DNA of 64,000 nucleotides from Leptolyngbyaceae cyanobacterium (GTDB taxonomy: Bacteria > Cyanobacteriota > Cyanobacteriia > Phormidesmidales > Phormidesmidaceae): NCBI GenBank assembly GCA_965263355.1, contig CBDHHL010000032.1, positions 2,688,001 through 2,752,000 of the forward strand, read 5' to 3'. Both the position numbers and the translations under genes were made by a program. Of the stretch, positions 41,886 to 64,000 are shown piece after piece; positions within the stretch are counted from its first letter, which is position 1, and every line of letters begins with the position of its first letter. The notes beneath the pieces are model-generated. The model had not been told where the DNA came from, searched no databases, and saw only the letters and a program-made list of their open reading frames with translations.

Positions 41886-42070
41886 GGTGGGTTGGATATT
41901 GGATATGAAGCCAAAAGTGTTGCTTGGGGTCCCTCTGAGTTCCCCAAACCCCCTTGGCCAGGGCCGGAACGCCGCTCTAGGATCCACCGTATCAGGGTAT
42001 CCCAAATTGCATCAGATAGGGGGGTAAGGGTGGTGCCTTGTGCCCATTCTGAAGTTGAGGTTGAAAAATA

Positions 42071-42155
42071 CCTTTTATCAGGCTGCACCTTTTATAAGGC
42101 TGTACCTTTTATCAGGCTGCACTTTTTATCAGGCTGCACCTTTTATCAGGCTGCA
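42071..42155. repeat. 17-bp tandem repeat CCTTTTATCAGGCTGCA x5
   Basis: Five contiguous near-identical units, no spacers. Confidence 0.85.
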
Positions 42156-42197
42156 GCCTTCAATTAATATCGGGACATTCTAGATTTGATATGTCCC

Positions 42198-48874: not shown

Positions 48875-48962
48875 GACATGTATAGTTACCAGTAAGCTAC
48901 ATAATTTTCGGATCTTAAAAGAGCGATCGCACCCTCTTTGGACAGGATGCGATCGCATCGCC

Positions 48963-49202
48963 CTAACTAATCTTCACTTTTTTAGTCAAAATCGCCATCA
49001 CCTCATTGGGTCGCCCGGTGGGTAGTGGACGACTCCAGTCGTTGGGCTCAGTGTAGTTGAGCTTATGCAACAGCTTGATGGTGGTCTGCACAAAGGTCAA
49101 ACTGCCCAGCAGCAGATGTCGTCCCATTTCGTAGGAGGATTCTGGTAGCGGGTCAGGCTGACGGGTGAGCGCTGATGCGCCCTGGGTTGGGTCTTGAAAC
49201 AT
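48963..49202 (-). CDS. small cyanobacterial hypothetical protein
   Basis: RHLLLGS..VQTTIKLLHKLNYTEPNDWSRPLPT..EVMAIL, a pattern I recognise from small cyanobacterial ORFs. Confidence 0.65.
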   Translation of the reverse strand: MFQDPTQGASALTRQPDPLPESSYEMGRHLLLGSLTFVQTTIKLLHKLNYTEPNDWSRPLPTGRPNEVMAILTKKVKIS

Positions 49203-49664
49203 GGTTCTGGTTCTCCAGAGATACGACAAGGAAAGCCAGAACCCAACAGCTCAGCCCCCGCGATGTATGGCAAATCGCAGGGGCTGAGGCATAATAAGCC
49301 CATCCCAAGGATTGCTCTGGAATCCGCGGGTCAGCCATCGGTTAGGTGTTGCGAGCACCTGCCGATGGTGCCAAGTTATTAGGTTCTAGTAGAACAGCTG
49401 CACTTGCAGCATTGGGTTACTTTAGACCGGGGGTTAGGCTTTCGTCAAGCTAGCGTAATGGGCTGTATCACGCTGTTATCAAGGCACTGAGGAGATGCTT
49501 CTGGCCGGAAAAATGCTCATTTCACTGGTTTAACCGTCAAAAACGGTAGATATTGACCCCATCGAACAAGGATAGTCTTAGCGACCCCCTAAAACATCAC
49601 ACTCACGATAAGTCTTGGTAGATGGCTCAATAGTTTATTTGAACTATTAAAGCGAGGTTAAAGC

Positions 49665-49807
49665 TTTCTGGATAACTCCGACTCTGGGGGTATTATCCAG
49701 AAAGTTTCTGGGTTAATTGCTTATAAGGTGTTTATCCAGAAAGTTTCTGGATAACTCCGGCTGGAAGGTATTTATCCAGACTTAGTCTGGATAACTCATA
49801 GTTAGGC
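49665..49807 (+). other. attI-like integron recombination site with upstream palindromic repeats
   Basis: GGATAAC-TCATA-GTTAGGC (L box, 5-bp spacer, GTTRRRY R box), preceded by TTATCCAG-N7-CTGGATAA palindromes at ~40-bp period. Confidence 0.6.
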
Positions 49808-50530
49808 GCGCGACTCGAAGTCGTTCGGGGGAGTTGGAGAGACTCCCAAATGACTCTCCCCGCCAGTGTTCAGGCGGATGTCCGCCTCGGAATGTTCGAC
49901 CAGTAATGGGAGGGCAGCATCAGCAGACGAGGTTAAATGTCGCAGTATCTTCTGAGCCAACAAGAGGGTGCAGGCTAGGGCAAGATTGCTAAGGATAACG
50001 CAAGTGAATCCTTGATGAGGCTTCGTTAATGTGAGTTCTCGAAATGGCTGATACGAGAATTTTGGAGCATATGGGGGTTGGTAGCGTCTAAATACCAATC
50101 AAGAACACCCCGCTCTCGGAGTAAAGAGGAATCCTAAAGCAATCATATCTCCACCCCGTGCGGAACGAGGAAACCCCGATAGAGTCCTGAAAATACTTTA
50201 TTTTCCAGGTAAGCGGAGGGCAACCAAAGCTGAACTCTCTAGCGGGCACAGGATATCCCAAGAAGCGAAAGCTGCCAGCCGAAAAACCGGAATTCATCAG
50301 ATAGGGCATTTGCCAACCTGAAACTCGTGGGATAGGTGATGGACGATGAAACTTAACTGATTGGGAAAAGTTAGGTGCAAGCTTCGGCTTGTAAACGTAA
50401 CCATCAGGACAATCTGAAAAGGTTGTTAAGAATCGGAAAAACTGAATTTCAAGACATTGCTTGATATACAGTGAAAGTTGTACGTACGGTTCTGAACGGG
50501 ATATATTTAAAACCTGCTTCCTTACCCGAC
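49808..50530 (+). mobile_element. ORF-less group II intron, copy 1 (small deletions incl. domain V)
   Basis: 5' GCGCG, 3' CCTTACCCGAC; near-identical to copy 2 but lacks GCCG in DV and part of DVI. Confidence 0.85.
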
Positions 50531-51298
50531 GCGCGACTCGAAGTCGTTCGGGGGAGTTGGAGAGACTCCCAAATGACTCTCCCCGCCAGTGTTCAGGCGG
50601 ATGTCCGCCTCGGAATGTTCGACCAGTAATGGGAGGGCAGCATCAGCAGACGAGGTTAAATGTCGCAGTATCTTCTGAGCCAACAAGAGGGTGCAGGCTA
50701 GGGCAAGATTGCTAAGGATAACGCAAGTGAATCCTTGATGAGGCTTCGTTAATGTGAGTTCTCGAAATGGCTGATACGAGAATTTTGGAGCATATGGGGG
50801 TTGGTAGCGTCTAAATGCCAATCAAGAACATCCCGCTCTCGGAGTAAAGAGGAATCCTAAAGCAATCATATCTCCACCCCGTGCGGAACGAGGAAACCCC
50901 GATAGAGTCCTGAAAATACTTTATTTTCCAGGTAAGCGGAGGGCAACCAAAGCTGAACTCTCTAGCGGGCACAGGATATCCCAAGAAGCGAAAGCTGCCA
51001 GCCGAAAGGCAACCGGAATTCATAACGGGGCAGATAGGGCATTTGCCCAACCTGAAAGGGGGCTGACGTGGGATAGGTGATGGACTTGAATGAAGGTGAG
51101 ATGAAACTTAACTGATTGGGAAAAGTTAGGTGCAAGCTTCGGCTTGTAAACGTAACCATCAGGACAATCTGAAAAGGTTGTTAAGAATCGGAAAAACTGA
51201 ATTTCAAGACATTGCTTGAGCCGTATACAGTGAAAGTTGTACGTACGGTTCTGAGGGGAGGAAGCGGGATATATTTAAAACCTGCTTCCTTACCCGAC
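50531..51298 (+). mobile_element. ORF-less group II intron, copy 2 (intact ribozyme core)
   Basis: 5' GCGCG; DV GAGCCGTATACAGTGAAAGTTGTACGTACGGTTC; DVI GGGGAGGAAGCGGG...CCTGCTTCCTTACCCGAC; no RT ORF. Confidence 0.92.
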
Positions 51299-51323
51299 AA
51301 TTGCGCAATATTCTTGTGGTAGA

Positions 51324-52190
51324 GTGAGAACCAATCATCCAACCCGACATCAGGTGAAAAGAATTGTACGAAAAGCAGCCCAGAAGATCCTAGGCTTTGA
51401 GCCAGCATTGCCGGCGTTAGAAGCCAAAGTAGCAACCAGCATCTCCGATAATCAACGATACCCCCAAGCCTGTCTTCGAGCTGCAAATGACTATCGACTC
51501 TTTAATTCATTTAGGCAGAGTCATGATTACACACAGATTCTTGAGCATGTCTCCCATGATCAAGGGGCTGCATATCTGGATGAGATAAAGAGATGGCCTG
51601 ACGTGTTTAGCGCACTTCCTGATATAGCCCATAACGATGATTACGGCGGGCCTGTTCTTCATTCTTATCCTGGAATCGCTCCGATATCTCCCAGCACACT
51701 TAGATATGCCAAAGTCTTGTGTGACTTATATAGCTTGTTTGGCTCTCTGGATAACTTTCATATTGCTGAGATTGGCGTTGGCTACGGAGGGCAATGCCGT
51801 GCCATAAATTCAACATCATCGCCAAGTAGTTACACACTTATTGACTTGCAGCCAGTTCTTCAGCTTTCACAGAGATACTTGGACTACTACATCTTGAATT
51901 CACAGCTAGTTTATTCAACCATGAACCAGCTGGCAACCCATGAATATGACTTACTGATTAGCAATTATGCCTTCACCGAGCTTCCAAGGGCAGTTCAGGA
52001 TGTTTATCTCTCTAGGGTCGTTCTGCCTTCGATTCGTGGGTATATTACATATAACCAGATATCTCCAGACTCGTTTATGTCCTATACATCAGATGAGCTG
52101 CTTGAGATGATTCCAGGCTCGGCCAGAGTCGACGAGGTTCCTCTCACTCATCCCATGAACTGTATAATTGTCTGGGGCCAGAATGGCTAA
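51324..52190 (+). CDS. putative sugar O-methyltransferase, cassette-like gene
   Basis: YTQILEHV, SPSTLRYAKV, IAEIGVGYGG, SNYAFTEL. The stop TAA lies inside the attC R'' box GGCTAAC. Confidence 0.82.
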   Translation: MRTNHPTRHQVKRIVRKAAQKILGFEPALPALEAKVATSISDNQRYPQACLRAANDYRLFNSFRQSHDYTQILEHVSHDQGAAYLDEIKRWPDVFSALPDIAHNDDYGGPVLHSYPGIAPISPSTLRYAKVLCDLYSLFGSLDNFHIAEIGVGYGGQCRAINSTSSPSSYTLIDLQPVLQLSQRYLDYYILNSQLVYSTMNQLATHEYDLLISNYAFTELPRAVQDVYLSRVVLPSIRGYITYNQISPDSFMSYTSDELLEMIPGSARVDEVPLTHPMNCIIVWGQNG

Positions 52191-52468
52191 CATAGGCCCT
52201 GAGGCGGACGAGGTCAATAGCAAATGCTAAAATTCTTTTTCTGCTTTAGCTTTAGCGCGGATTCAGACGTTCAAAATTGACCTAATAGTCAGGTGTTCAG
52301 GGAGACTGAACCTGCGCTATTAGATGGGGCTGCGTTGCTGAATGATCATTGATACGGGTTAGCTGTTCATAAGATATTTCTCCAAGTGACTGCATAGAGT
52401 GCTCGATCTTGTTTTGGTTGTTACTGTTTTTATTGCTTGTTTTCAAGTGCAATTTGTTCTTCTTGCAC

Positions 52469-53752
52469 TTATTGTTTAGGTTGTTGTTGAACGCCTAATA
52501 GCTTTACTAGTGGTGATTTTTTACGTCTCAGTGCAGCCAGATATTTCTCCTCGTCATAGGGTACACCATCTTGCCAACAACGCCAGAGAATTCTCCCCCA
52601 CTTATAGGCCAAGGCTCGAATCGCTTTTTGATGTGACTTACCCTTTAGTCGTTGTTGTTGATAAAACGCTTGTGACCAAACCGAGCGAGGCCTGGCATGA
52701 GCAACCCACTCGACAAAGGTTTGTCTTAGAAAGATGGGGCAAGACCAACGCCAATGAACCCATCGCTTTTTGCCACTCTCTTCTTTGACTGGCGCGATGC
52801 CAATGTAACTCAAAAAAGACTGAGCGCAATTAAAGCGAGTTCGGTCTTCACCAAAGGCCGCTAACAATCGTGGCGCTAAATGAGGCCCAGCCCCTGGCAA
52901 TGCCTTAAAAAGTTCTGCATCCGGCAGCGATTCAAATAACGAGGCAATTTGACGCTCAAACACAATCAATTGCGACAAGACTACTTTCAATAAAGCGACT
53001 AAGCCTTGCATTAACGCTTGGGCTGGAATGGTGATAGCGTCGTCTCGCGTCAAGGGTGGCCCAGCGTCTTGAATTTGCTGAGTTCGCCGTTGAATCGTGG
53101 TTTTGCGAATGATGTGATGGCTACGAAAGAAGTCTCTCAAGACATCAGCTGTAGCAGCTTGAGCCTCTTGTAAATTGGGAAACTGTTCAAGGAATTCACA
53201 AAACGCAATGGTGTCTTTATCTTCAAACCAGTCGAGCACTTGAGGAAAATAGGATTTGAGTGCGGCGGTGATCCGATTCGTCAGCCGGACCTTCTCACCC
53301 ACTAACATGCGACGGGACTCAACCCATTGTCTCAATGCACGATGCTTCGGACAACCTGATGTCCAGATATCAAGTTTTTCACCATGTTTTTGCATCAATT
53401 CGACGATCAGTTTGGCATCGATGGGATCCGATTTGGCCCGCGAGGGCTGAAACGCTTTGCGATAGTTCGCGACCGTTCGAGGATTAACGGGCACCAGCAC
53501 CAAATTCTCGTATTGACATAGGCCATAAAGGAGGGGGCCGCGTTTCTGCTCCAACCCAACCAGCAACTTGGACTCTCCATAGGTTTTTCGTAAGCGATTG
53601 ACCCAATCTGCAATGGATTGGGGCTTGGATTGAATCGTGCAATGCTCCCAGGTTTCGTTCTGGCAGTCATAGAGCGCAATATCATGTTTACGATCTGCCC
53701 AGTCAATCCCGATATAAGCCGCATATGCTGTTGGACTTTGATTGAGTTTCAT
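52469..53752 (-). CDS. IS110 family recombinase/transposase
   Basis: GIDWADRKHD, GLEQ, KSDPIDA (DEDD), LPGAGPHLA, GIAPVKEESGK. Confidence 0.95.
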   Translation of the reverse strand: MKLNQSPTAYAAYIGIDWADRKHDIALYDCQNETWEHCTIQSKPQSIADWVNRLRKTYGESKLLVGLEQKRGPLLYGLCQYENLVLVPVNPRTVANYRKAFQPSRAKSDPIDAKLIVELMQKHGEKLDIWTSGCPKHRALRQWVESRRMLVGEKVRLTNRITAALKSYFPQVLDWFEDKDTIAFCEFLEQFPNLQEAQAATADVLRDFFRSHHIIRKTTIQRRTQQIQDAGPPLTRDDAITIPAQALMQGLVALLKVVLSQLIVFERQIASLFESLPDAELFKALPGAGPHLAPRLLAAFGEDRTRFNCAQSFLSYIGIAPVKEESGKKRWVHWRWSCPIFLRQTFVEWVAHARPRSVWSQAFYQQQRLKGKSHQKAIRALAYKWGRILWRCWQDGVPYDEEKYLAALRRKKSPLVKLLGVQQQPKQ

Positions 53753-53804
53753 TGTGCTAAATTGAGGGTGTTTTTGTTTGACGGAGAGTCTGCCACCAGT
53801 CGCC

Positions 53805-54080
53805 TTGCGAAGTGATTATGGAAAGGGTTATTTCCCTGCTCCCTGAGGATTCGTTGGGCAGCGATTGGACTGGCTTGAAGGGCGATTCGATATGTTAGTA
53901 GTCATCTTCTGACTGGCGCTGCATAGTCGTCCCCCCAAGCTAGCAGATTCTCTCCTTTCTTGACTCTATGCTTTTTTCCAGATTTAGAACATCTAAAGGG
54001 AGGAGCGATACGATATGTTAGTAGACATCTATACTGTCGTCCAATGCATAGTCGTCTCCTCCCATTTTTCTATGCTCGTC
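53805..54080 (-). ncRNA. predicted IS110 bridge RNA with two target loops and one donor loop
   Basis: Hairpins 53998-54063 and 53873-53940 each carry CTAACAT (target). Hairpin 53808-53853 carries CCTCAGGG and CCATAAT (donor junction). Confidence 0.78.
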
Positions 54081-54260
54081 CCCCCATAATCCAGATGCAG
54101 AAGACGGGAGTATGGGCTGGCTTCACTGCCGAGATTCTGGCCCGCTTCTGATCTGGAGCGTTAGGCTGCATCCCATACAGAATCCAGTTCCCTACTGACT
54201 CCTCACTTCTGACTTCTCGCATCGAGAAACCGTCTCGCTTTATATTAATACCCTTGAAGC

Positions 54261-57200
54261 TTATTCCTCAGGGCAAGCTTCACGAATTGCCGCACGTACA
54301 GCATTCGCAAGTAGCTGAACTTGAGGAGATTTCATTATCCTATAGTGATTACCTGGAATATGAACAATACCAAACTCTCCTGTAAGCACTGTGTCCCAGC
54401 CCCGATCATCGGTTTCCTCCTCTGCAGAGCAGAGTATCACTCGACCACCATAGGGTTGCACCTGATATCGTGCTAATGCCGTCTGATTAGCTTTGAAGAT
54501 GCGGAATAGATAGGCCATTTGCGTAGGCGTCATTTCCGGTGGTAGTAAGTTCATCCCCTGGGCAACGGCAAAGAGGTGTTCCAGCTGAGCATTAGGTGCG
54601 AGTTTTGCCAGTTTCAATCGATCTAACGACAGCTCACTATCAAACAAACCATTTAAATCAGTGATTAAAGACTGTAAATCTGCCGTGCCAATTTCCTCTG
54701 ATGTCGCCGATTTTGATGCCTCTATAGGGCTGGCTATTACCTGTGGCGTATAGCTATCAATCAGTACAACAAGCGCTACAGCTTCTCCGATAGATTGAAG
54801 CTGTTGAGCCATTTCTATGGCAATAACACCGCCCATTGACCATCCTGCTAAGTAATAAGGGCCATGGGGTTGAACGCTTTTTAAGGCCTTAATATAAGTC
54901 ATGGCCATCGTTTTAATTGAGTCTAAAGGCGTAACGTTATGATATGGTTCTGGTGATTGAAGACCGTACAGCGGTTGGTCTCGACCCAAATGATGGGCTA
55001 ATTCGGCGTAGCAGAAAACATTTCCACCCACTGGATGAATACAAAAGAGTAAGGGCAAAGTTCCATGGGGCTGGATCGGAACGAGGGGAGAGTGGTCTAC
55101 AATCGCATTTTGGCTGTTCAGTAGTCGAGCTTGGGCTTCAATGGTGGGATCAGTAAAGAGCACTGGCAATGGTAAATTAACTCCCAACTCTTGTTCTACT
55201 TGAGCCATTAGTCGCACCGCTAACAGGGAATGTCCCCCTAGCTCAAAGAAATCATCGTGTACTCCGACACTATCAAGGTTGAGGACTGCCGACCAAATTT
55301 GGGATAGTTGAAATTCTAAAGTGGTACGGGGTGGGGTAAAACTTACAGGAAAAGAGAGATCGACTTTAGGCCGGGGAAGAGTGCGACGATCAACTTTACC
55401 ATTGGGCGTCAAAGGTATTGCCTCCAAACGGATAAATGCACTGGGCACCATATAAAGGGGTAACTTAGTTTTAACGAATTCGCGCAACTGACCAATTGTC
55501 GATTCTCTCTTAGTGACAACATAGGCAATCAGGCGTTTATCTTCTGGGATATCTTCTCGAACAGTAACAACTGTTGAACTGACGTCTGGGTGTGTAGCTA
55601 AAACTGTTTCTATTTCTCCAAGCTCTATACGAAAACCCCGGATTTTAACTTGATTGTCAATTCGGCCCAGAAACTCAATGTTCCCATCTTGAAGATAACG
55701 TGCTTTATCTCCAGTATCATAAAGAATAGCATCTGGGTGAACACTAAAGGGATTTTGAACAAACTTCTGGGCAGTTTTTATCGGATCGTCATACCCCACA
55801 GCCAAACATTCTCCTCCAATATATAAAAAGCCAGGCACCCCTATCGGGCAGGGGGTCAGGCAAGAATCTAAGATATAATACTGTGCATTTTGGATGGGTC
55901 TGCCATAGGGAATGCTGGTTAAATTCTGATTGATAGATTCGATCCGATAATAATTCGACCAAATAGTTGCTTCGGTTGCTCCACCCAGACTGACAAGAAG
56001 AATGCTGGGAAATACTTTCTTCACCTGCTCAGGCAAGGCTACTGGAATCCAGTCACCACTCAAGAAGCCTAACCGGAGGGAACTGTTTGCTATGGATTTA
56101 GATGGCAAGAACGAAATCAATTGTTGAAGGGTTGCTGGGGTAGAATCCCAAAAGGTAATTGACTCCTCACAGAGAATATCAGCCACCTTCCGAGGATCTT
56201 GTAATTCTAAATCTGAAGCTACTCGAATTGACCCACCAGCCGCTAGCAAGCCAAAGATATCGTAAACAGATAAGTCAAAACACAAAGAGGTAACAAACAG
56301 TAGGCGATCGTCAACACTCACATTAAAAGTCTGGTTGACCCAATCAATTAAGTTGACAGCAGATCTATGACGTACGATGACGCCTTTGGGTACACCAGTA
56401 GACCCCGACGTATAGATAACATAAGCCGTATTATTCGGCATTACTGATGTTTCGGGATTTCGAGTGGACATTTGTGATAAATGCCAGTTTGTTGCCCAGT
56501 GTTTCTGTAGTACAGTCAAAGCAACTTGCTGTCTATCATTGCTTTCAGTGTTATGTTTTTTAATGATCACATCGTATCGATAGCGAAGTTCATTTTCAAA
56601 TCCCTGCTCTCGCTTAAGAACCGAAATCTCAGCAATAGGCTCTAATTGAACAGCTAAATCCCAGAAAAATTTCTCATCTACATATAGCTCACTACCCAGA
56701 TTAGTTTTCGCCTGGATAGGGTGTTCACCATCCTGATTAGACCTAAAGGCTATCAATGATTGTTCAAACTCGTCTTTGCGGCGAGCGTCCATGATATCTG
56801 ATAGCAAGATCGCTCCTCCTGGAGCTAAGCGTCTTACAGCAAGATCAAGAACGTGCTGTAAATAAAAAGCTCCTGGGAAAAACTGAACCGTACTCGCGAA
56901 GATAATAAGGTCAAAGGGGCCATCTTCAATGGAACCAATCTCATCCGCAAAAGCCGTCACGAGCTTAATAAAATTCCAATTATTCTCCCGAAGAATCTCA
57001 GCGTTACGTGCTTGAGTGATTTCTGAAGGATCAACACCAACATAGAGATCAACCTCAGGAGCAATTGCGAACATAATTTCTCCTGAACCACAGCCAATCT
57101 CTAGCACTCGTTTCCCGCTTCCAAAATATGGTTTCGCTAATCCAACAACGTGACATTTATACTCATCAACTTCGGACTCGGAAAAAGGCTGACTGGTATA

Positions 57201-60200
57201 GCTGCTAATAAATCCACCTGCCGTGACGCGATCGCTAGCCTGCTGGGCTACCCAATCCCATAACGATCGCACAGCCTTACGATCAATTTTTTCAGGATGG
57301 GGGGTGGGATCATCTATATCCAGGCAGATGACATGGGTTAGTTGTGAGTATTTCCATAGCAACTCTTGTGCAGTTCGCAGGTATTTTTGTTGGGTGATAA
57401 GACAGCTTACTGCTTGGGATGTAATAATCTTTTCTACTCGCGCAATTGGCCATTGAGGATCAAAAGGAATGTAAGCTCCACCGGCTTTTATTGCACCCAT
57501 CACGGCAGTTGGAATATTCGCAGAACGGTTCAAATAGATACCAATCTTCACTTCTGGGCCAACTCCGAGTGTTTGTAAGTAGTGTGCGAGTTGATTGGCG
57601 CGAACGTTTAGCTCCTGATAAGTCAGTTGTCTCTGATTAAACAGAATTGCCACTGCATCTGGACGCTGTTTCACTTGGGCTTCAAATAACTGATGAATGC
57701 ATTTATCCTTAGGGTAAGGGGCTTCAGTTTGATTCCATTCAACCAACAATTGGTGCCGTTCTATAGCCGTGAGCAAGGGTAGTTCTGTCACTGATTGTTG
57801 AGGGTTAGCGACAATCGCCCTCAATAGGGTCTCAAAATGCCCCACCGCTCGCTGAATCGTTGCTGTATCAAACAGGTCTTGATTATATTCCCAATAACCA
57901 ATTAGCCTATTATCCCGTTCCTCCAAGGAGAGAAACAGGTCAAACTTGGCGCGACCACTTTCCATTTGCAGCCACTCAAATCTAATTCCTGGCAGATTTA
58001 AGGGTTCCATGGGTGCATTTTGCAGGGCGAACATGACCTGAAAAAGAGGCGTATGACTGAGACTGCGTTCCGGTTGTAGTGCTTCTATTAACTGTTCAAA
58101 GGGCAAGTCTTGGTGGGCATGGGCATCTAACGCGGTTTGCCGGACTTGGGCCAAGAGTTGAGGAAAGGTCAGATTGTCGTCGAAGCGCGATCGTAACACC
58201 AACGTATTCACAAAGAAGCCAATTAATCCTTCAATTTCACTACGATTGCGGTTGGCAATGGGGGTGCCCACCAAAATATCGGTTTGACCGCTGTAGCGGT
58301 AGAGTAGGCTACTAAAAGCCGCAAACAACGTCATAAAAAGGGTTACCCCTGATTGTTGACTCAGATGTTTAAGCTGTTCCGTAAGGGTATGATCCAGTTG
58401 AAAAAAGATGCGATCGCCTTGATTAGACTGCACCGTCGGTCGAGGATAATCCGTAGGCAAGTCCAATAATGGGGGCGCATCGGCTAACTGTTGCCGCCAA
58501 TACTCCAATTGTGGCGCAAGAGATTGAGCGGTGGCAGGTTGTCGCTGCCAAGCGGCAAAGTCGGCATATTGAATGGCCAGTTCAGGTAAGGGTGAGGAGT
58601 CCCCTTCGATGAATGCTCCGTAGAGCACCTCCAATTCATGGACCAATACTCCCGTAGACCAACCATCGGTAATAATATGATGCATAGTGAGAAGCAACAT
58701 ATAGTCATCCTTCGCCAATTGCATCAACATGACCCGTAACAAGGTATCGTGAGCCAGATCAAAGGGTTGTTGTACCGCATCTTGACCCAGCTGTTGGACC
58801 TCAGCCATTTGTTGTTTTGGCTCAACATGCTGTAAATCTACTATCGGCAGTGGTAAATCTCTATGTGGCGATATTACCCGGAGCGGTTTCCCCTCAACAG
58901 ATTTGAAATTTGTTCGTAAGCTATCGTGTCGTCGGACAATTTCTAGTAGAGCTTGATGGAGTGCCTCCACATGCAGCGTCCCTGACAAACGTAAGCCCTC
59001 CTGCTCATTGTAGGCGACACTCTGGTCTTGTAATTGATCTAAAAACCAGAGACGTTGCTCAGCGAAGGATAGGGGTAAGTCTCCTTGACGGGACATCTGT
59101 TGAATCAGTGTTCGCTCTGAGGGCGTAGGTTTGGATTCGGTGTCCAGAATATCTTGGCTCAGTTGGGCGATGGTAGGAGATTCAAATAACCGATGCAGCG
59201 ACAGTTCCCGTTGGAAAACATCCCGCACTCGTGAAATTAGCTGGGTGGCTTGAATTGAATCTCCGCCCAGCATAAAAAAATTATCCAAAACCCCAATTTC
59301 GTTCAGCCCCAACACGTCGGCCCAAATATTAGCTAATAGCTCCTCCATAGGGGTCCGGGGATTCACCAGCTTGACATCTAGAACAGGACGGGAGCGATCG
59401 GGGGCTGGCAAATGCTGACGATCGACCTTACCGCTGGGGGTAAGGGGCAATTGATCGAGGACCACAAATGCCGAGGGAACCATGTAATTGGGCAGGGTTT
59501 CCGTCAGAAACTGACGCACCTGAGGAATCAGCTGATTTGTTTTCTGGCCACTGTATGGTTGGTTCGCATAGGCGTGCCAAGGTTTGGCCTTATTAGGAAT
59601 CTCACCGGGGGGCTGATCAACGGCTCCATGAGCCCTATCACCCAGGATAACGTTTGTGCCCTGCCGTACAAAGATGACATCGTAGTAGCCCTCATTGCCT
59701 TTACTATCCCAAGTGAGATGAACTTGGTACGGAATTTGATCTTGCAACGTCCACCAGACTTCCGGTTCAATGGCCTTGCTCTTGGCATCGTGTAAGGTAA
59801 TCTCTTGGCGAAGTTCCTTTACCGTTGGGGGACAATGATCCACATTTGACAATAGCGACAGGGCGATAACGTCAGACCCAATTCGGGCATTCGGCACATG
59901 GTTGACCACTAATAGGTCAGGGGTCATGTCCACTAGTTTTTGGCGGATGGCATGGATTGCCTCCTCGCCATCTTCTTCACACCAGTCCAGAAAAACAGGT
60001 GCGGTAGGTGTGGCAAATTCTTTATCGATGTGCAACACCACATCGTAACGAAATCGGGTCAGCTCATTTTGATGATATCCCCGCTTTAGGTGAATGTCTA
60101 CATGGCTAATGCGGGGCAGATAGGCCTTTAATGCTGTGAAAAACTCAGGATCAACCATCAATCGTTGTTCACGGGTGCGACGATCGCGAATACGTCTGCG

Positions 60201-62243
60201 TAGGTCTGCTACCGGGAGAGAATCTGGCGATTGATAGAGCTGCACTGAGGTATGGAACATTTCCAACAACGGTAAACTCAAAATATCTCCCAGGAAAATT
60301 TGTCCGCCTGGTTGAATTCTATCCACTGCGGTTTCAATAACTGACACCAAATAATCAATACTGGGGAAGAATTGAATCACTGAATTAGAGATAGCTGTAT
60401 CAAAGGATGTCGTCACAATCTCTCCCAGGGTATGGGCAGCAGCCTGTTGCAGAACTACAGATGCTGCAACTGAAGGTTCAAGGATTTGACCGGCCTTAAG
60501 TTGTCGCTCTAGATAGCGAATGGCCTCACCGGATAAATCTGTAGCATAGTAGTGTTGACACTTAGGTGCCATGCGAAAAAGCAGTAGCCCTGTGCCACAG
60601 CCAATTTCTAAAAGGCGCTGGGGTTGCAATGATAAGATTCGCTCTACCGTATAGTCCACCCATTCCTGTACATGATTTGGGTCCAGATCTGTGCCTGTGT
60701 AGGAGTCGTTCCAGCCGCCAATGTGAAAATCAGCATCCTGCTCCTGATCAGGTTGAATATAGGCTTCATCCCAAATTTGCCGCCATTGTTCCGTTTGTTC
60801 AACGACATCCTGAGTTGCCTTGACCTTAACCTCAGAGCCGGAAACAACATAGGCTACTAAGCGCTTTTGACCGCTGGGTTCTGCTCGCGCTGTTACAACA
60901 GCTTGGGCAATATCAGGATGTTGTAACAGGGTTGCTTCGATTTCTTCCAACTCAATGCGATAGCCCCGTATCTTAACTTGGTGATCAATACGGCCTAAAC
61001 ATTCAATGGTGCCATCGGTATGGTACCGGGCTAAATCTCCAGTTTTATAAAGGCGATCACCCTCCTCTAAATCAGCGTCCTGGGCAAAGGGACTGGGAAT
61101 AAATTTTTTAGCGGTCAACTCCGGACGATTGAGATATCCTCGAGCGACCCCTATGCCCCCAATGTGCAATTCTCCAACTTCACCAACAGCGACAGGGGTT
61201 TGATTCTCATCTAGAATGTAAGCCTGGGTATTACTAATCGTCCGCCCAATAGGGATGGTCGCATCCGCCGATTGCACCCGATGTATCGTGGCCCATACCG
61301 TAATTTCAGTAGGACCATATAAATTCCACAACGATCCCCCCTTAGGTAATAACTGGGCCGCTAGCTCTGGTGATAAGCGGTCCCCAGTAGAAATGATTTT
61401 CAAGTCACGACACCCTGACCATTTAGCATTCATGAGCATTTGCCAGGTCGCAGGGGTAGCTGACATCACTGTCACACGGTGTTGATGAATCAACTGAATT
61501 AACTGATCAGGATCTTGGGTTGCTGTTTGACTGGCCACGACCACCTTACCGCCAACGGTCAATGGACCAAGCAATTCTGGAACTGAAACGTCGAAAGAAA
61601 TGGTTGTAACTGCAATAGACGTATCCGTGTCCCTTAACCCTGGGCAAATGGCAATCGCCAATAGTAGATTCACCACGGAACGATGAGCGATCTGTACCCC
61701 CTTAGGTTTTCCGGTCGAACCAGAGGTGTAGATAATGTAGGCTAAGTTACTAGGTACAGCAGTAGAAATGGGATTAATGGGAGAATGTTGGCCGATGTGT
61801 TGTTTAGTGCTACCAAGGCAGATTAGTGTAATGTTCTTGGCAAGGTGTATCTGGACATTAGTGGCTGGCGATTGAGTTACAATAATTTTTAGACCCGCAT
61901 CTTGCACCATAAAAGCAAGGCGATCACTAGGATAGGCTGGATCTAAAGGAACATAAGTGCCACCAGCTTTCATGATGCCGAGCATCGCAACGACCATTTC
62001 TAAGGAGCGTTCAATGCAAAGTCCCACCAGTACCTCTGGACCTACCCCCAAGGATTGCAGATAATGGGCAAGTTGATTGGCCTGTTGATTTAATTCCTGA
62101 TAGGTAAGTTGCTGCTCCTCAAAAACCAGTGCCACAGCATCCGGAGCCTGCATCACTTGGGCTTCAAACATTTCATGAATGCATCGATTCCAAGATGTGC
62201 TGGTATCAGTATTGCGCATTTCTGAGGCGTTAGCTTCTTGCAT
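54261..62243 (-). CDS. two-module NRPS: A(MT)-T-C-A(MT)-T-TE
   Basis: YTSGSTGKPKG and YTSGSTGVPKG (A3); LEIGCGTG and LEIGCGSG (MT); GGDS and GGHS (T); HHIITDGWS (C); GWSMGG (TE). Confidence 0.95.
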   Translation of the reverse strand: MQEANASEMRNTDTSTSWNRCIHEMFEAQVMQAPDAVALVFEEQQLTYQELNQQANQLAHYLQSLGVGPEVLVGLCIERSLEMVVAMLGIMKAGGTYVPLDPAYPSDRLAFMVQDAGLKIIVTQSPATNVQIHLAKNITLICLGSTKQHIGQHSPINPISTAVPSNLAYIIYTSGSTGKPKGVQIAHRSVVNLLLAIAICPGLRDTDTSIAVTTISFDVSVPELLGPLTVGGKVVVASQTATQDPDQLIQLIHQHRVTVMSATPATWQMLMNAKWSGCRDLKIISTGDRLSPELAAQLLPKGGSLWNLYGPTEITVWATIHRVQSADATIPIGRTISNTQAYILDENQTPVAVGEVGELHIGGIGVARGYLNRPELTAKKFIPSPFAQDADLEEGDRLYKTGDLARYHTDGTIECLGRIDHQVKIRGYRIELEEIEATLLQHPDIAQAVVTARAEPSGQKRLVAYVVSGSEVKVKATQDVVEQTEQWRQIWDEAYIQPDQEQDADFHIGGWNDSYTGTDLDPNHVQEWVDYTVERILSLQPQRLLEIGCGTGLLLFRMAPKCQHYYATDLSGEAIRYLERQLKAGQILEPSVAASVVLQQAAAHTLGEIVTTSFDTAISNSVIQFFPSIDYLVSVIETAVDRIQPGGQIFLGDILSLPLLEMFHTSVQLYQSPDSLPVADLRRRIRDRRTREQRLMVDPEFFTALKAYLPRISHVDIHLKRGYHQNELTRFRYDVVLHIDKEFATPTAPVFLDWCEEDGEEAIHAIRQKLVDMTPDLLVVNHVPNARIGSDVIALSLLSNVDHCPPTVKELRQEITLHDAKSKAIEPEVWWTLQDQIPYQVHLTWDSKGNEGYYDVIFVRQGTNVILGDRAHGAVDQPPGEIPNKAKPWHAYANQPYSGQKTNQLIPQVRQFLTETLPNYMVPSAFVVLDQLPLTPSGKVDRQHLPAPDRSRPVLDVKLVNPRTPMEELLANIWADVLGLNEIGVLDNFFMLGGDSIQATQLISRVRDVFQRELSLHRLFESPTIAQLSQDILDTESKPTPSERTLIQQMSRQGDLPLSFAEQRLWFLDQLQDQSVAYNEQEGLRLSGTLHVEALHQALLEIVRRHDSLRTNFKSVEGKPLRVISPHRDLPLPIVDLQHVEPKQQMAEVQQLGQDAVQQPFDLAHDTLLRVMLMQLAKDDYMLLLTMHHIITDGWSTGVLVHELEVLYGAFIEGDSSPLPELAIQYADFAAWQRQPATAQSLAPQLEYWRQQLADAPPLLDLPTDYPRPTVQSNQGDRIFFQLDHTLTEQLKHLSQQSGVTLFMTLFAAFSSLLYRYSGQTDILVGTPIANRNRSEIEGLIGFFVNTLVLRSRFDDNLTFPQLLAQVRQTALDAHAHQDLPFEQLIEALQPERSLSHTPLFQVMFALQNAPMEPLNLPGIRFEWLQMESGRAKFDLFLSLEERDNRLIGYWEYNQDLFDTATIQRAVGHFETLLRAIVANPQQSVTELPLLTAIERHQLLVEWNQTEAPYPKDKCIHQLFEAQVKQRPDAVAILFNQRQLTYQELNVRANQLAHYLQTLGVGPEVKIGIYLNRSANIPTAVMGAIKAGGAYIPFDPQWPIARVEKIITSQAVSCLITQQKYLRTAQELLWKYSQLTHVICLDIDDPTPHPEKIDRKAVRSLWDWVAQQASDRVTAGGFISSYTSQPFSESEVDEYKCHVVGLAKPYFGSGKRVLEIGCGSGEIMFAIAPEVDLYVGVDPSEITQARNAEILRENNWNFIKLVTAFADEIGSIEDGPFDLIIFASTVQFFPGAFYLQHVLDLAVRRLAPGGAILLSDIMDARRKDEFEQSLIAFRSNQDGEHPIQAKTNLGSELYVDEKFFWDLAVQLEPIAEISVLKREQGFENELRYRYDVIIKKHNTESNDRQQVALTVLQKHWATNWHLSQMSTRNPETSVMPNNTAYVIYTSGSTGVPKGVIVRHRSAVNLIDWVNQTFNVSVDDRLLFVTSLCFDLSVYDIFGLLAAGGSIRVASDLELQDPRKVADILCEESITFWDSTPATLQQLISFLPSKSIANSSLRLGFLSGDWIPVALPEQVKKVFPSILLVSLGGATEATIWSNYYRIESINQNLTSIPYGRPIQNAQYYILDSCLTPCPIGVPGFLYIGGECLAVGYDDPIKTAQKFVQNPFSVHPDAILYDTGDKARYLQDGNIEFLGRIDNQVKIRGFRIELGEIETVLATHPDVSSTVVTVREDIPEDKRLIAYVVTKRESTIGQLREFVKTKLPLYMVPSAFIRLEAIPLTPNGKVDRRTLPRPKVDLSFPVSFTPPRTTLEFQLSQIWSAVLNLDSVGVHDDFFELGGHSLLAVRLMAQVEQELGVNLPLPVLFTDPTIEAQARLLNSQNAIVDHSPLVPIQPHGTLPLLFCIHPVGGNVFCYAELAHHLGRDQPLYGLQSPEPYHNVTPLDSIKTMAMTYIKALKSVQPHGPYYLAGWSMGGVIAIEMAQQLQSIGEAVALVVLIDSYTPQVIASPIEASKSATSEEIGTADLQSLITDLNGLFDSELSLDRLKLAKLAPNAQLEHLFAVAQGMNLLPPEMTPTQMAYLFRIFKANQTALARYQVQPYGGRVILCSAEEETDDRGWDTVLTGEFGIVHIPGNHYRIMKSPQVQLLANAVRAAIREACPEE

Positions 62244-62378
62244 ATCCTGTACATCTAGTTACTGCAGTATCCTATACTAGGGGATTAGGAGTATGAAGAG
62301 TGTTTTTCATCACTGCATAAAAAAAGGATACAAGACGTCGCCAAAGCACCGTCAAAGACAGGCGGAGATGCCTAACAT

Positions 62379-64000
62379 AGTCCCTGAGGCGGACGAGGTC
62401 AATAGCAAAGGCTAAACTTCTTTTTCTAGTTAAGCTTGAGTCTGTATTCAGACATGCAGGATTAACCTGATACTCAGTTGTTCAGGGAGGAGATTGTTCT
62501 CTCTCAGAGAGGGCTGCTTTGCTGTATGACCGTGAATACGGGTTAGCTGTTCATCGGATATTGCTCCAAGTGATTACATCGAGTGCTCGATCTTGTTGTT
62601 GTAGTTGTAGTAGTTGTTGTTATCTGCCTTTAAAGTATTACTTGTTATTTTTGTGATTGTTGTTTAGGTTGTTGTTGAACGCCCAATAACTTTGCTAGTG
62701 GGGACTTTTTGCGTCTCAGTACAGCTATGTATTTTTCTTCATCATAAGGGACACCATCTTGCCAACAGCGCCAGAGAATTCTTCCCCACTTATAGGCCAA
62801 GGCACGAATCGCTTTAGGATGACTTTTACCTGATTGCTTCTGCTGTAGATAAAAGGCTTGGGACCAAGTCGAATGTCGACGCGCTTGATCGACCCATTCA
62901 ACAAAGGTTTGTCTGAGGAAAATTGGACATGACCAACGCCAATGAACCCAGCACTTTTTGCCGCTTTCCTCCTTGACAGGGGCAATACCGATATAGCTCA
63001 TAAAGGCCTGAGCCGACGTAAAGCGCGTGCGGTCTTCGCCAAAGGCGACTAACAGTCGTGGCGCTAGATGCGGTCCGGCTCCCGGTAAGGCCTGAAATAA
63101 CTCGGCATCTGGCAATGACTCAAACAGGTTAGCAATCTGTTGGTTAAATTCAGTTAATTGTTGTAAAACAACCTTAAGCAGAGTGATTAGACTTAAAGTC
63201 AGTGTTTTAGCCGGTATCACAATGGCGTCATCCTCAGTCAGCGGTGGGCCTGCGTCTTTGATTTGCTGAATCCTACGCTGAATCGTCGTCCGTCGAACAA
63301 CATGATGGCGATGGAAAAACTGAGTGATTGTTTCAGGGGTCGCTGCTTGGGCCGCTTTGACATCGTCGAACTGCTCAATAAACTCACAAAAGACCTGCGT
63401 ATCTTTATCTCTAAACCAATCAAGAACTTGAGGAAAATAGGATTTGAGTGATGCGGTGATACGGTTAGTCAAACGCACCTTTTCGCCCACTAACATCCGA
63501 CGCGATTCTACCCATTGTCTGAGGGCACGATGTTCAGGGCACCCTGCCACCCAAGCCTTTAGTTTATTGCCATGCTTACGCATTAACTCCACCAGAATAC
63601 GGGCATCTACGGGGTCGGATTTGGCTCGTGATGGCTGAAACGCTTTTCGATAGTTGGCCACCGTTCTGGGATTAATGGGAAACAGCACTAAATTGTCATA
63701 CTGACACAGCGCATAGAGTAGAGGCCCTCGCTGTTGTTCAAGAGCAACCGCAATTTTGCCAGGACCATACCGTTCTCGGAGTTGTGTGACCCAATCCAGA
63801 ATAGCTTGAGGATGGTTTTGAATAATACTATTTTTCCAGGTGTCTGTTGCACAGTCATATACCGCAATGTCATTTTTTCGGTCAGCCCAGTCAATGCCCA
63901 CATAGGCCACATAGTCAATCGACTCGATGGCCTTAGGCATAGGTGTTTCTGAAGCTGAGTCTGTAGTTATGGTTGGGGCTATTGTCATTGTGTTAGATTA
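62379..64000 (-). mobile_element. second IS110-family element (left end outside window) inserted after GCCTAAC-AT
   Basis: End AGTCCCTGAGGCGGACGAGGTCAATAGC is homologous to 52194 onward. Confidence 0.85.
62645..63988 (-). CDS. IS110 family recombinase/transposase (diverged paralogue of 52469-53752)
   Basis: GIDWADRKND, ALEQ, KSDPVDA, GIAPVKEESGK. Confidence 0.95.
   Translation of the reverse strand: MTIAPTITTDSASETPMPKAIESIDYVAYVGIDWADRKNDIAVYDCATDTWKNSIIQNHPQAILDWVTQLRERYGPGKIAVALEQQRGPLLYALCQYDNLVLFPINPRTVANYRKAFQPSRAKSDPVDARILVELMRKHGNKLKAWVAGCPEHRALRQWVESRRMLVGEKVRLTNRITASLKSYFPQVLDWFRDKDTQVFCEFIEQFDDVKAAQAATPETITQFFHRHHVVRRTTIQRRIQQIKDAGPPLTEDDAIVIPAKTLTLSLITLLKVVLQQLTEFNQQIANLFESLPDAELFQALPGAGPHLAPRLLVAFGEDRTRFTSAQAFMSYIGIAPVKEESGKKCWVHWRWSCPIFLRQTFVEWVDQARRHSTWSQAFYLQQKQSGKSHPKAIRALAYKWGRILWRCWQDGVPYDEEKYIAVLRRKKSPLAKLLGVQQQPKQQSQK

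Follow-up and report, generated by a model that had tools for sequence, protein, structure and literature searches.

An ORF-less group IIB intron at an orphan cyanobacterial attI site, with RNA predicted to pair with the attI/cassette junction

The window (the whole 64,000-nucleotide stretch of cyanobacterial DNA analysed here) contains two head-to-tail ORF-less group IIB introns directly 3' of the integron core site GTTAGGC, which alignment and profile scores place in an orphan attI. The intron RNA matches attI at three places, which makes it likely that it homes there with a borrowed enzyme. The best explanation, which is considered probable, is that an ORF-less IIB intron at attI retrohomes by means of an RT that an RT-bearing relative supplies, and that predicted pairing between its RNA and the attI/cassette junction guides it there. 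The intron is inserted on the top strand, six bases past the attI crossover point. A wider proposal is put forward more tentatively, with a little less than an even chance of being right: the retroelement would ride the capture cycle of the integron, its RNA programmed for the attI/cassette junction, while IntI renews the target and carries old copies down the array and out on excised circles, so that a gene-less ribozyme spreads across a cyanobacterial order on RT supplied in trans and on IntI.

Copy 1 (49808..50530, top strand) is 723 nt long and damaged. It has seven short deletions, in D3, at the start of D4, in D5 and in D6, which are clustered in its 3' 40%, and most of its D1 is identical to that of copy 2; the D5 catalytic triad and the D6 features are gone and the copy is predicted to be inactive. 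Copy 2 (50531..51298, top strand) is 768 nt long and intact, with six domains, a GCGCG 5' end and a CCCGAC 3' end. Its D5, with an AGC triad, and D6, with a bulged A, occupy 51218..51298 on the top strand as judged from the fold and from a match to Rfam RF00029 at 66.4 bits, and are preceded by a Domain IV remnant (51104..51217, same strand) which consists of a DIVa-like hairpin together with what is left of the RT gene, its first and last bases. The six-domain fold is supported by two-sided changes at 52 of the 169 predicted D1-D4 pairs in a consensus fold of 23 sequences. The AC at the 3' end fits the pattern GUGYG...AY, and the 5' end is GCGCG throughout the family and GTGCG in the RT-bearing L138 and in distant relatives. 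A preliminary description of this DNA had reported an ORF-less intron on the top strand that abuts GTTAGGC, and this stands: GTTAGGC lies at 49801-49807, the intron starts at 49808, and neither window copy has an ORF or an RT. The fold and classification that it called for make copy 2 a group IIB intron with intact D5 and D6; the deletions in D3, D5 and D6 of copy 1 had been missed.

Contigs from four of the 22 listed read runs bear on the locus. In run X2 there is an empty allele in which attI is joined straight to the first cassette, with the core GTTAGCC (the complement of the cassette R''), and in run X1 the intron, with a depth some 3.5 times that of a single copy, stands before the cassette, and the attC lacks the IS; near-identical strains are thus polymorphic for the presence or absence of the intron. 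The window core, GTTAGGC, differs from the GTTAGCC of the empty allele, and the 5' flank in the window may therefore have arisen by exchange or by mutation. Contigs from X1 span 50530-51253 and continue from 51270, with a single difference. In the RNA run X21, intron-only contigs of related copies (mostly less than 95% alike) were found and no spliced junction was seen. The tandem would be explained most simply by a second homing event into the 5' exon, which is still intact. It is nonetheless a sizeable, if minority, possibility that copy 1 is an assembly artefact and that the locus holds a single intron, as may be suspected from the clustering of seven short deletions in one part of the copy, from the failure to see them in X1 and X2, and from an assembly which seems to be a mixture of host and cyanobacterial DNA. 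The stretch deleted in copy 1 has a depth of 1-3 in X1 and X2, neither of which has the exact genotype of the window; they differ in the IS110 element or in the intron and are therefore uninformative on the tandem. The long ORFs nearby are intact, and the 3'-to-5' junction between copies recurs in metagenome contig L141 and is hinted at in run X4, which argues against an artefact.

The orphan integron attI region lies at 49661..49807 on the top strand and consists of a repeat tract and a simple site, TAA-N6-GTTAGGC. It can be aligned at nearly every base with the empty attI that stands beside full-length intI in two other cyanobacteria (L231, L234), and of the window's 137 GTTRRRY sites it alone has a positive score (13.3) against an attI profile trained on 25 intron-free, intI-adjacent attI sites; the intron is therefore assigned to an orphan attI and not to an attC. 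The layout expected of attI is present, namely an L box, a spacer, a GTTRRRY core and then a cassette with its attC. An attC as the 5' exon was considered and rejected, as neither an R'' box nor an attC hairpin occurs within 200 nt. No tblastn match to IntI was found anywhere in the window, so the attI has no adjacent intI. The interval 48880-49810 has no plasmid match and includes an 88-aa ORF which matches no family, and a promoter scan yielded hits at chance level only. The segment at 48960-49660, where intI would be, is decayed and is several-fold multicopy in X1 and X2, and the attI tract itself is present about 10-fold in both runs. Further upstream, at 42070-42160, an array of 17-nt direct repeats precedes an ion-channel gene.

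The first gene cassette (51299..52191, top strand) follows copy 2 directly and ends in the attC R'' box GGCTAAC (52185-52191). It encodes a putative sugar O-methyltransferase (51324-52190, top strand; TIGR04371 at 69.7 bits, cut-off 44). Its attC is split by an IS110-family element identified by Pfam and NCBIfam (52192..54088, bottom strand), beyond which lies the 3' part of the attC (54089..54166, top strand) with the R' box GTTAGGC at 54160-54166. Once the IS is taken out, the attC folds (-17.9 kcal/mol) into one extended hairpin in which the R boxes pair. A 9.2 kb contig of run X1 skips the element exactly, which points to a recent insertion into the attC. A second IS110 element lies at 62377-64000; the two are 72-84% alike and each begins right after an R'' box. 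The opposite strand encodes a 2660-aa NRPS (A-MT-PCP-C-A-MT-PCP-TE) in the stretch bounded at 54160 by the R' of the attC and at 62370 by an R'' box complementary to it, and 54160-62376 looks like an 8.2 kb gene cassette that carries this gene; an X1 contig spans the same block.

Three elements of the intron RNA are predicted to read this junction. The preliminary description had proposed that EBS1 is the GTCTAA (50086-50091 and 50809-50814) in the loop of the stem TTGGTA-GCGTCTAAA-TACCAA, and both hairpins are present, the 3' arm in copy 2 being TGCCAA. The Id3 loop that holds this motif spans 50084..50092 in copy 1 and 50807-50815 in copy 2, both on the top strand, and GUCUAA pairs, with one G-U, with the IBS1 TTAGGC (49802..49807, top strand), which is the cassette-derived part of the core site. 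In the 23 sequences all eight pairs of the stem have compensatory two-sided changes. Within the family, 18 of 20 members form at least five of the six possible pairs between the 6-nt EBS1 in the Id3 loop and the exon; EBS1-exon covariation is absent at this level (the observed value was equalled or exceeded in 264 of 2000 permutations) because family exons are too alike. In distant relatives with different targets, loop positions 3-8 complement the exon end of each relative: when the hairpins were chosen without regard to the exon, the mean in 21 of these relatives was 4.0 pairs, as against 2.2 with permuted exons (0 of 2000). This register test used 40 of 69 segments, 13 having been set aside beforehand, 11 having no hairpin with a 9-nt loop and five being duplicates. 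The loop thus follows the differing targets of distant relatives and is identified as EBS1.

In introns of this kind EBS2 begins three bases past the 5' branch of ID(iv), and EBS2a is the middle one of these three bases and pairs with exon position -14, according to the accessible part of PMC8643678. When this rule is applied to the consensus fold, EBS2a and EBS2 fall at 50026..50033 on the top strand of copy 1 (EBS2a at 50027; EBS2, ATGTG, at 50029-50033) and at 50749-50756 of copy 2, facing IBS2a and IBS2 at 49794..49799 on the same strand (A at -14, 49794; CTCAT, -13..-9). EBS2 of the window pairs with IBS2 at four of five bases, and the U of EBS2a pairs with the A at -14 and complements the A of the attI TAA box. 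Across the family the EBS2 consensus AUUUA is the complement of TAAAT, the consensus of the attI spacer. EBS2 covaries with exon positions -13..-9 in 14 distant relatives (3.57 as against 2.01 pairs; 0 of 5000), the 24 relatives that lack the anchor having been left out, and also within the family (3.40 as against 2.93; 4 of 5000), and EBS2a pairs with -14 in 17 of 20 family members and nine of 14 relatives (42 of 5000 permutations). The EBS2 suggested earlier, TATGGG at 50070, has to be given up: the consensus fold of the 23 sequences has its GGG in a stem, and over 20 family members it averages 2.4 of 6 pairs, with 5.5 reached by the window copy only. A first scan, which went no further than 45 nt from the EBS1 loop, had yielded no candidate because the real EBS2 lies further 5'. 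With regard to EBS3, the first base of the 3' exon is T in 15 of 32 3' exons compared with four of 25 empty attI (p 0.02), and a direct EBS3-IBS3 pairing test, on 10 rows only, showed nothing.

A genome scan with the exact pattern gave one locus only, and its genome was taken as the centre of an order-level search in which 35 of 172 genomes of that order match the intron at E 1e-10 or better; in a sample of the phylum 18 of 401 genomes match, mostly over short stretches. Order genomes, metagenome loci and deeper searches of ten genomes yielded 69 distinct 5' junctions of the family, of which 42 are attI-like (39 by profile and three by context), 18 follow an attC, seven lie at other sites and two are tandem, with attI and attC labels that were partly set by eye and with related sites that are not independent. 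GTT occupies -7..-5 in 57 of the 67 non-tandem junctions; strict GTTRRRY is found at 35 of them and the relaxed RTTRNNY at 61, as against backgrounds of 0.1% (137 sites in 128,000 window positions) and 1.0%. The 32 3' exons are all distinct. A divergent intI or a fragment of one lies at 10 of the 42 attI-like sites, and a search seeded with integrases only found 33 loci, two with an intron at attI, 25 empty and six unreadable. IntI scores above the TIGR02249 cut-off in 65 of the 172 genomes of the order, whose attI regions are tracts of 150-300 nt with direct and inverted repeats of the integrase box, and many orphan attI with intI stubs occur as well. Two genomes outside the order contain 291-nt mini versions of the intron, made up of the 5' end, part of D2/D3 and D5/D6, at the same non-att site (L092:4700-5000 and L073). 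Across these homologues insertion on the top strand at a core site holds good, as the preliminary description had supposed, and the primary target appears to be attI instead of any GTTAGRC core.

IntI crosses over between the G and the TT of the core. A crossover at this position would assign IBS1, and with it the intron, to the first cassette and leave IBS2 and IBS2a with attI, so that the capture of a new cassette would move the intron behind an attC. Each capture would shift the old intron behind an attC and away from the cassette promoter, where it would decay, and would at the same time rebuild an empty homing site; cassette integration is described in the available text of PMC4889954 as making chimeric attI/attC sites. 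Both recombination boxes are whole, so that integron function would not be blocked by the intron, and the cassette leader would be re-formed on splicing. Copies flanked by attC are poorly matched by EBS2 and mostly decayed, as expected if IntI displaces them, and displacement by cassette capture would explain their presence. The EBS2 fit is 3.49 at attI as against 2.25 at attC junctions (p 3e-5), and 18 of 27 copies at attI are intact compared with two of 15 at attC (p 0.001; hand tallies). An A at -14 is present at 34 of 42 attI-like and none of 18 attC junctions, a contrast which drops to 41 of 42 and 11 of 18 if a one-base shift is allowed. In a held-out set just three of eight attI-like sites have the A at -14, which counts against the attI reading. 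An automatic harvest of attC sites gave one site and then 33 mixed ones, in both orientations and with some attI repeats among them, with the A at -14 in five of the 33; the harvest is weak because its sites are few or mixed. An intact copy at L005:1470-1500 follows an attC and a 31-nt piece of attI, as if IntI had crossed over at an inner attI repeat.

One alternative, which was the view of the preliminary description and is considered unlikely, is direct homing into any core site, attI or attC, by means of EBS1 and single-stranded or hairpin DNA, with no need for displacement. It would account for the 18 attC-flanked junctions, where the EBS1 fit is 5.2 of 6, two copies are intact (L286, L287) and many belong to one high-copy genome; these junctions and the two intact copies also count against the homing reading preferred here, as do the lack of intI in the window, the one-base mismatch between its core and that of the empty allele, the absence of EBS1 covariation within the family, and the scarcity of close RTs and the mixed D1-D3 tree described below. 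A claim that all attC copies are dead, based on seven of seven at first, was rejected when the held-out data were found to hold the two intact ones. A role for the attC hairpin has moreover been speculated upon for another IIB intron in the accessible part of PMC7923331. Arrays hold more attC than attI, yet attC copies are fewer and mostly decayed, and EBS2 and EBS2a suit attI and not attC. At loci with upstream DNA that extends to an attI, the distance from there to the attC copies is a few cassettes at most: introns are found one cassette (L298, L304) or a few cassettes (L287, L299) below an empty attI. Successive or nearby cassettes of an array carry copies at L272, L289 and L290.

The RT-bearing parent sought by the preliminary description was found in L086: a family member of 2363 nt, located at an attI-like site, with a true cassette array behind it. 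Its RT has 560 aa, a YADD motif and RVT_N, RVT_1, GIIM and HNH domains, scores 367.6 against TIGR04416 (cut-off 300) and has T.el4h RT (PDB 6ME0) as its closest solved structure; on these grounds it is classed as a CL-class RT. RTs with at least 80% identity occur in five of the 172 genomes of the order (three of them broken or partial) and in several metagenome contigs, and one genome, G067, has an intact RT together with 22 intron matches. Among 13 genomes that carry a long ORF-less copy, 12 yielded no RT of at least 80% identity, two of them being near-complete, and drafts may hide collapsed copies. A single D4 remnant of 102-103 nt with DIVa recurs in 19 distinct strings (17 loci and the two window copies), and its flanks match the start and end of the RT in RT-bearing relatives; judged from this remnant, the ORF-less copies share one ORF deletion in which DIVa was kept. 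The idea that they form one clade on D1-D3 was rejected (p-AU 0.005), from which it follows that ORF-less and RT-bearing forms appear to recombine; the window copy groups with the RT-bearing L138 (99/99), and X1 and X2 have loose ends in which an L138-like RT end is joined to D5. Mobilisation in trans by the RT of a relative is inferred, and the 12 genomes that yielded no close RT count against it. It is improbable that the ORF-less copies do without retrohoming altogether and instead reach attI when recombination or gene conversion places them on RT-bearing copies already resident there, or when attI-cassette blocks are transferred horizontally. Such exchange would fit the intermixing of the two forms on D1-D3, the one-base core difference from the empty allele and the fact that a close RT is not seen in most genomes with ORF-less copies. 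Against it, ORF-less copies that are 76-91% alike keep compensatory structure and DIVa, the genome with the intact parent holds 22 matches, near-identical strains are polymorphic for the intron, and trans mobilisation has been shown for ORF-less introns of T. elongatus (PMC2882425, as far as its available text goes). A loose TTAGRC specificity, with copies accumulating at attI only because insertion does no harm there and the cassette promoter provides transcription, would suit the seven junctions at non-att sites and the modest EBS2 pairing (about 3.5 of 5) and is very unlikely, given that the EBS2 consensus exactly complements and covaries with the attI spacer and that one of 229 TTAG[ACG][CT] sites in the window, many of them intergenic, is occupied.

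Known integron-seeking introns find attC through DNA shape, and the window family appears to read attI by RNA-DNA pairing. Neither a description of attI as an intron target class nor an attI-targeting intron was found in the literature searched, which was made up of papers free of subscription and took in the smaller part of the Zimmerly database literature. If homing and displacement take place as proposed, attI would be a self-renewing homing site, and by this cycle gene-less introns, which PMC4424553 regards as rare in bacteria, could persist across an order. The intron could serve as a natural marker for attI sites, which are not searchable by prediction tools according to the accessible part of PMC4889954, and possibly as a clock for the order of cassettes in arrays. 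If splicing needs a visiting RT, the intron may also gate the expression of the first cassette.

Among other relatives, an RT-bearing intron lies inside the CRISPR repeats of a Nostoc plasmid array (L003:2556 and the L003:5300 region; L061), with EBS1 and EBS2 that match the repeat. A group of relatives at 14 loci all insert just after DNA that encodes the ADD-x-V motif of other RT genes, which makes them introns aimed at RT active-site codons.

Like the IIC-attC introns, the window intron belongs to a group II lineage specialised for integron recombination sites, and on its structural features it is classed as a IIB intron of the CL class and not as an IIC-attC intron. IIC-attC introns of the S.ma.I2 type have a CGC triad and no EBS2, insert into the bottom strand within attC's R'' box in the orientation opposite to the cassettes, are guided by the attC hairpin and split the gene from its attC, as set out in the accessible parts of PMC7923331, PMC4424553 and PMC8876359. 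Unlike these, the window family is IIB with an AGC triad, combines EBS1, EBS2 and EBS2a, and is found mostly at attI, with both sites left whole. The preliminary description was right to separate it from the IIC-attC type, since family members insert in the top strand after the R box and in the sense of the cassette. IS1111-attC elements (available text of PMC9229058) are likewise aimed at integron sites, but these are DNA transposons at attC and not retroelements at attI; the IS110-family element in the attC of the window cassette may be compared with them. UHB.I2 (Sonbol and Siam 2021, PMC7923331), a single RT-bearing, En-minus case of type IIB1/CL1, is alike in position, as it follows an attC directly. 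With the window family it shares the IIB type, the orientation of the cassettes and a place immediately behind a core site, and its authors, in the available portion of the paper, describe poorly conserved exons, propose no RNA programming and do not name attI as a target. By eye, the printed D1 start and RT of UHB.I2 differ from those of the window family. CL1 and E introns in Shewanella integrons are described in the same way as single RT-bearing cases in the accessible text of PMC9229058. A parallel in life style is provided by the ORF-less TeI3 introns of Thermosynechococcus elongatus, which are mobilised in trans (Mohr et al. 2010, PMC2882425). Like them, the window lineage is cyanobacterial and of the CL class and has one ORF deletion in which the RT ends and DIVa are kept. 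As portrayed in the available part of that paper, the TeI3 families diversified their EBS sequences to reach many targets within one genome, whereas the window lineage, often with no resident parent, occupies one target class in many genomes of an order.
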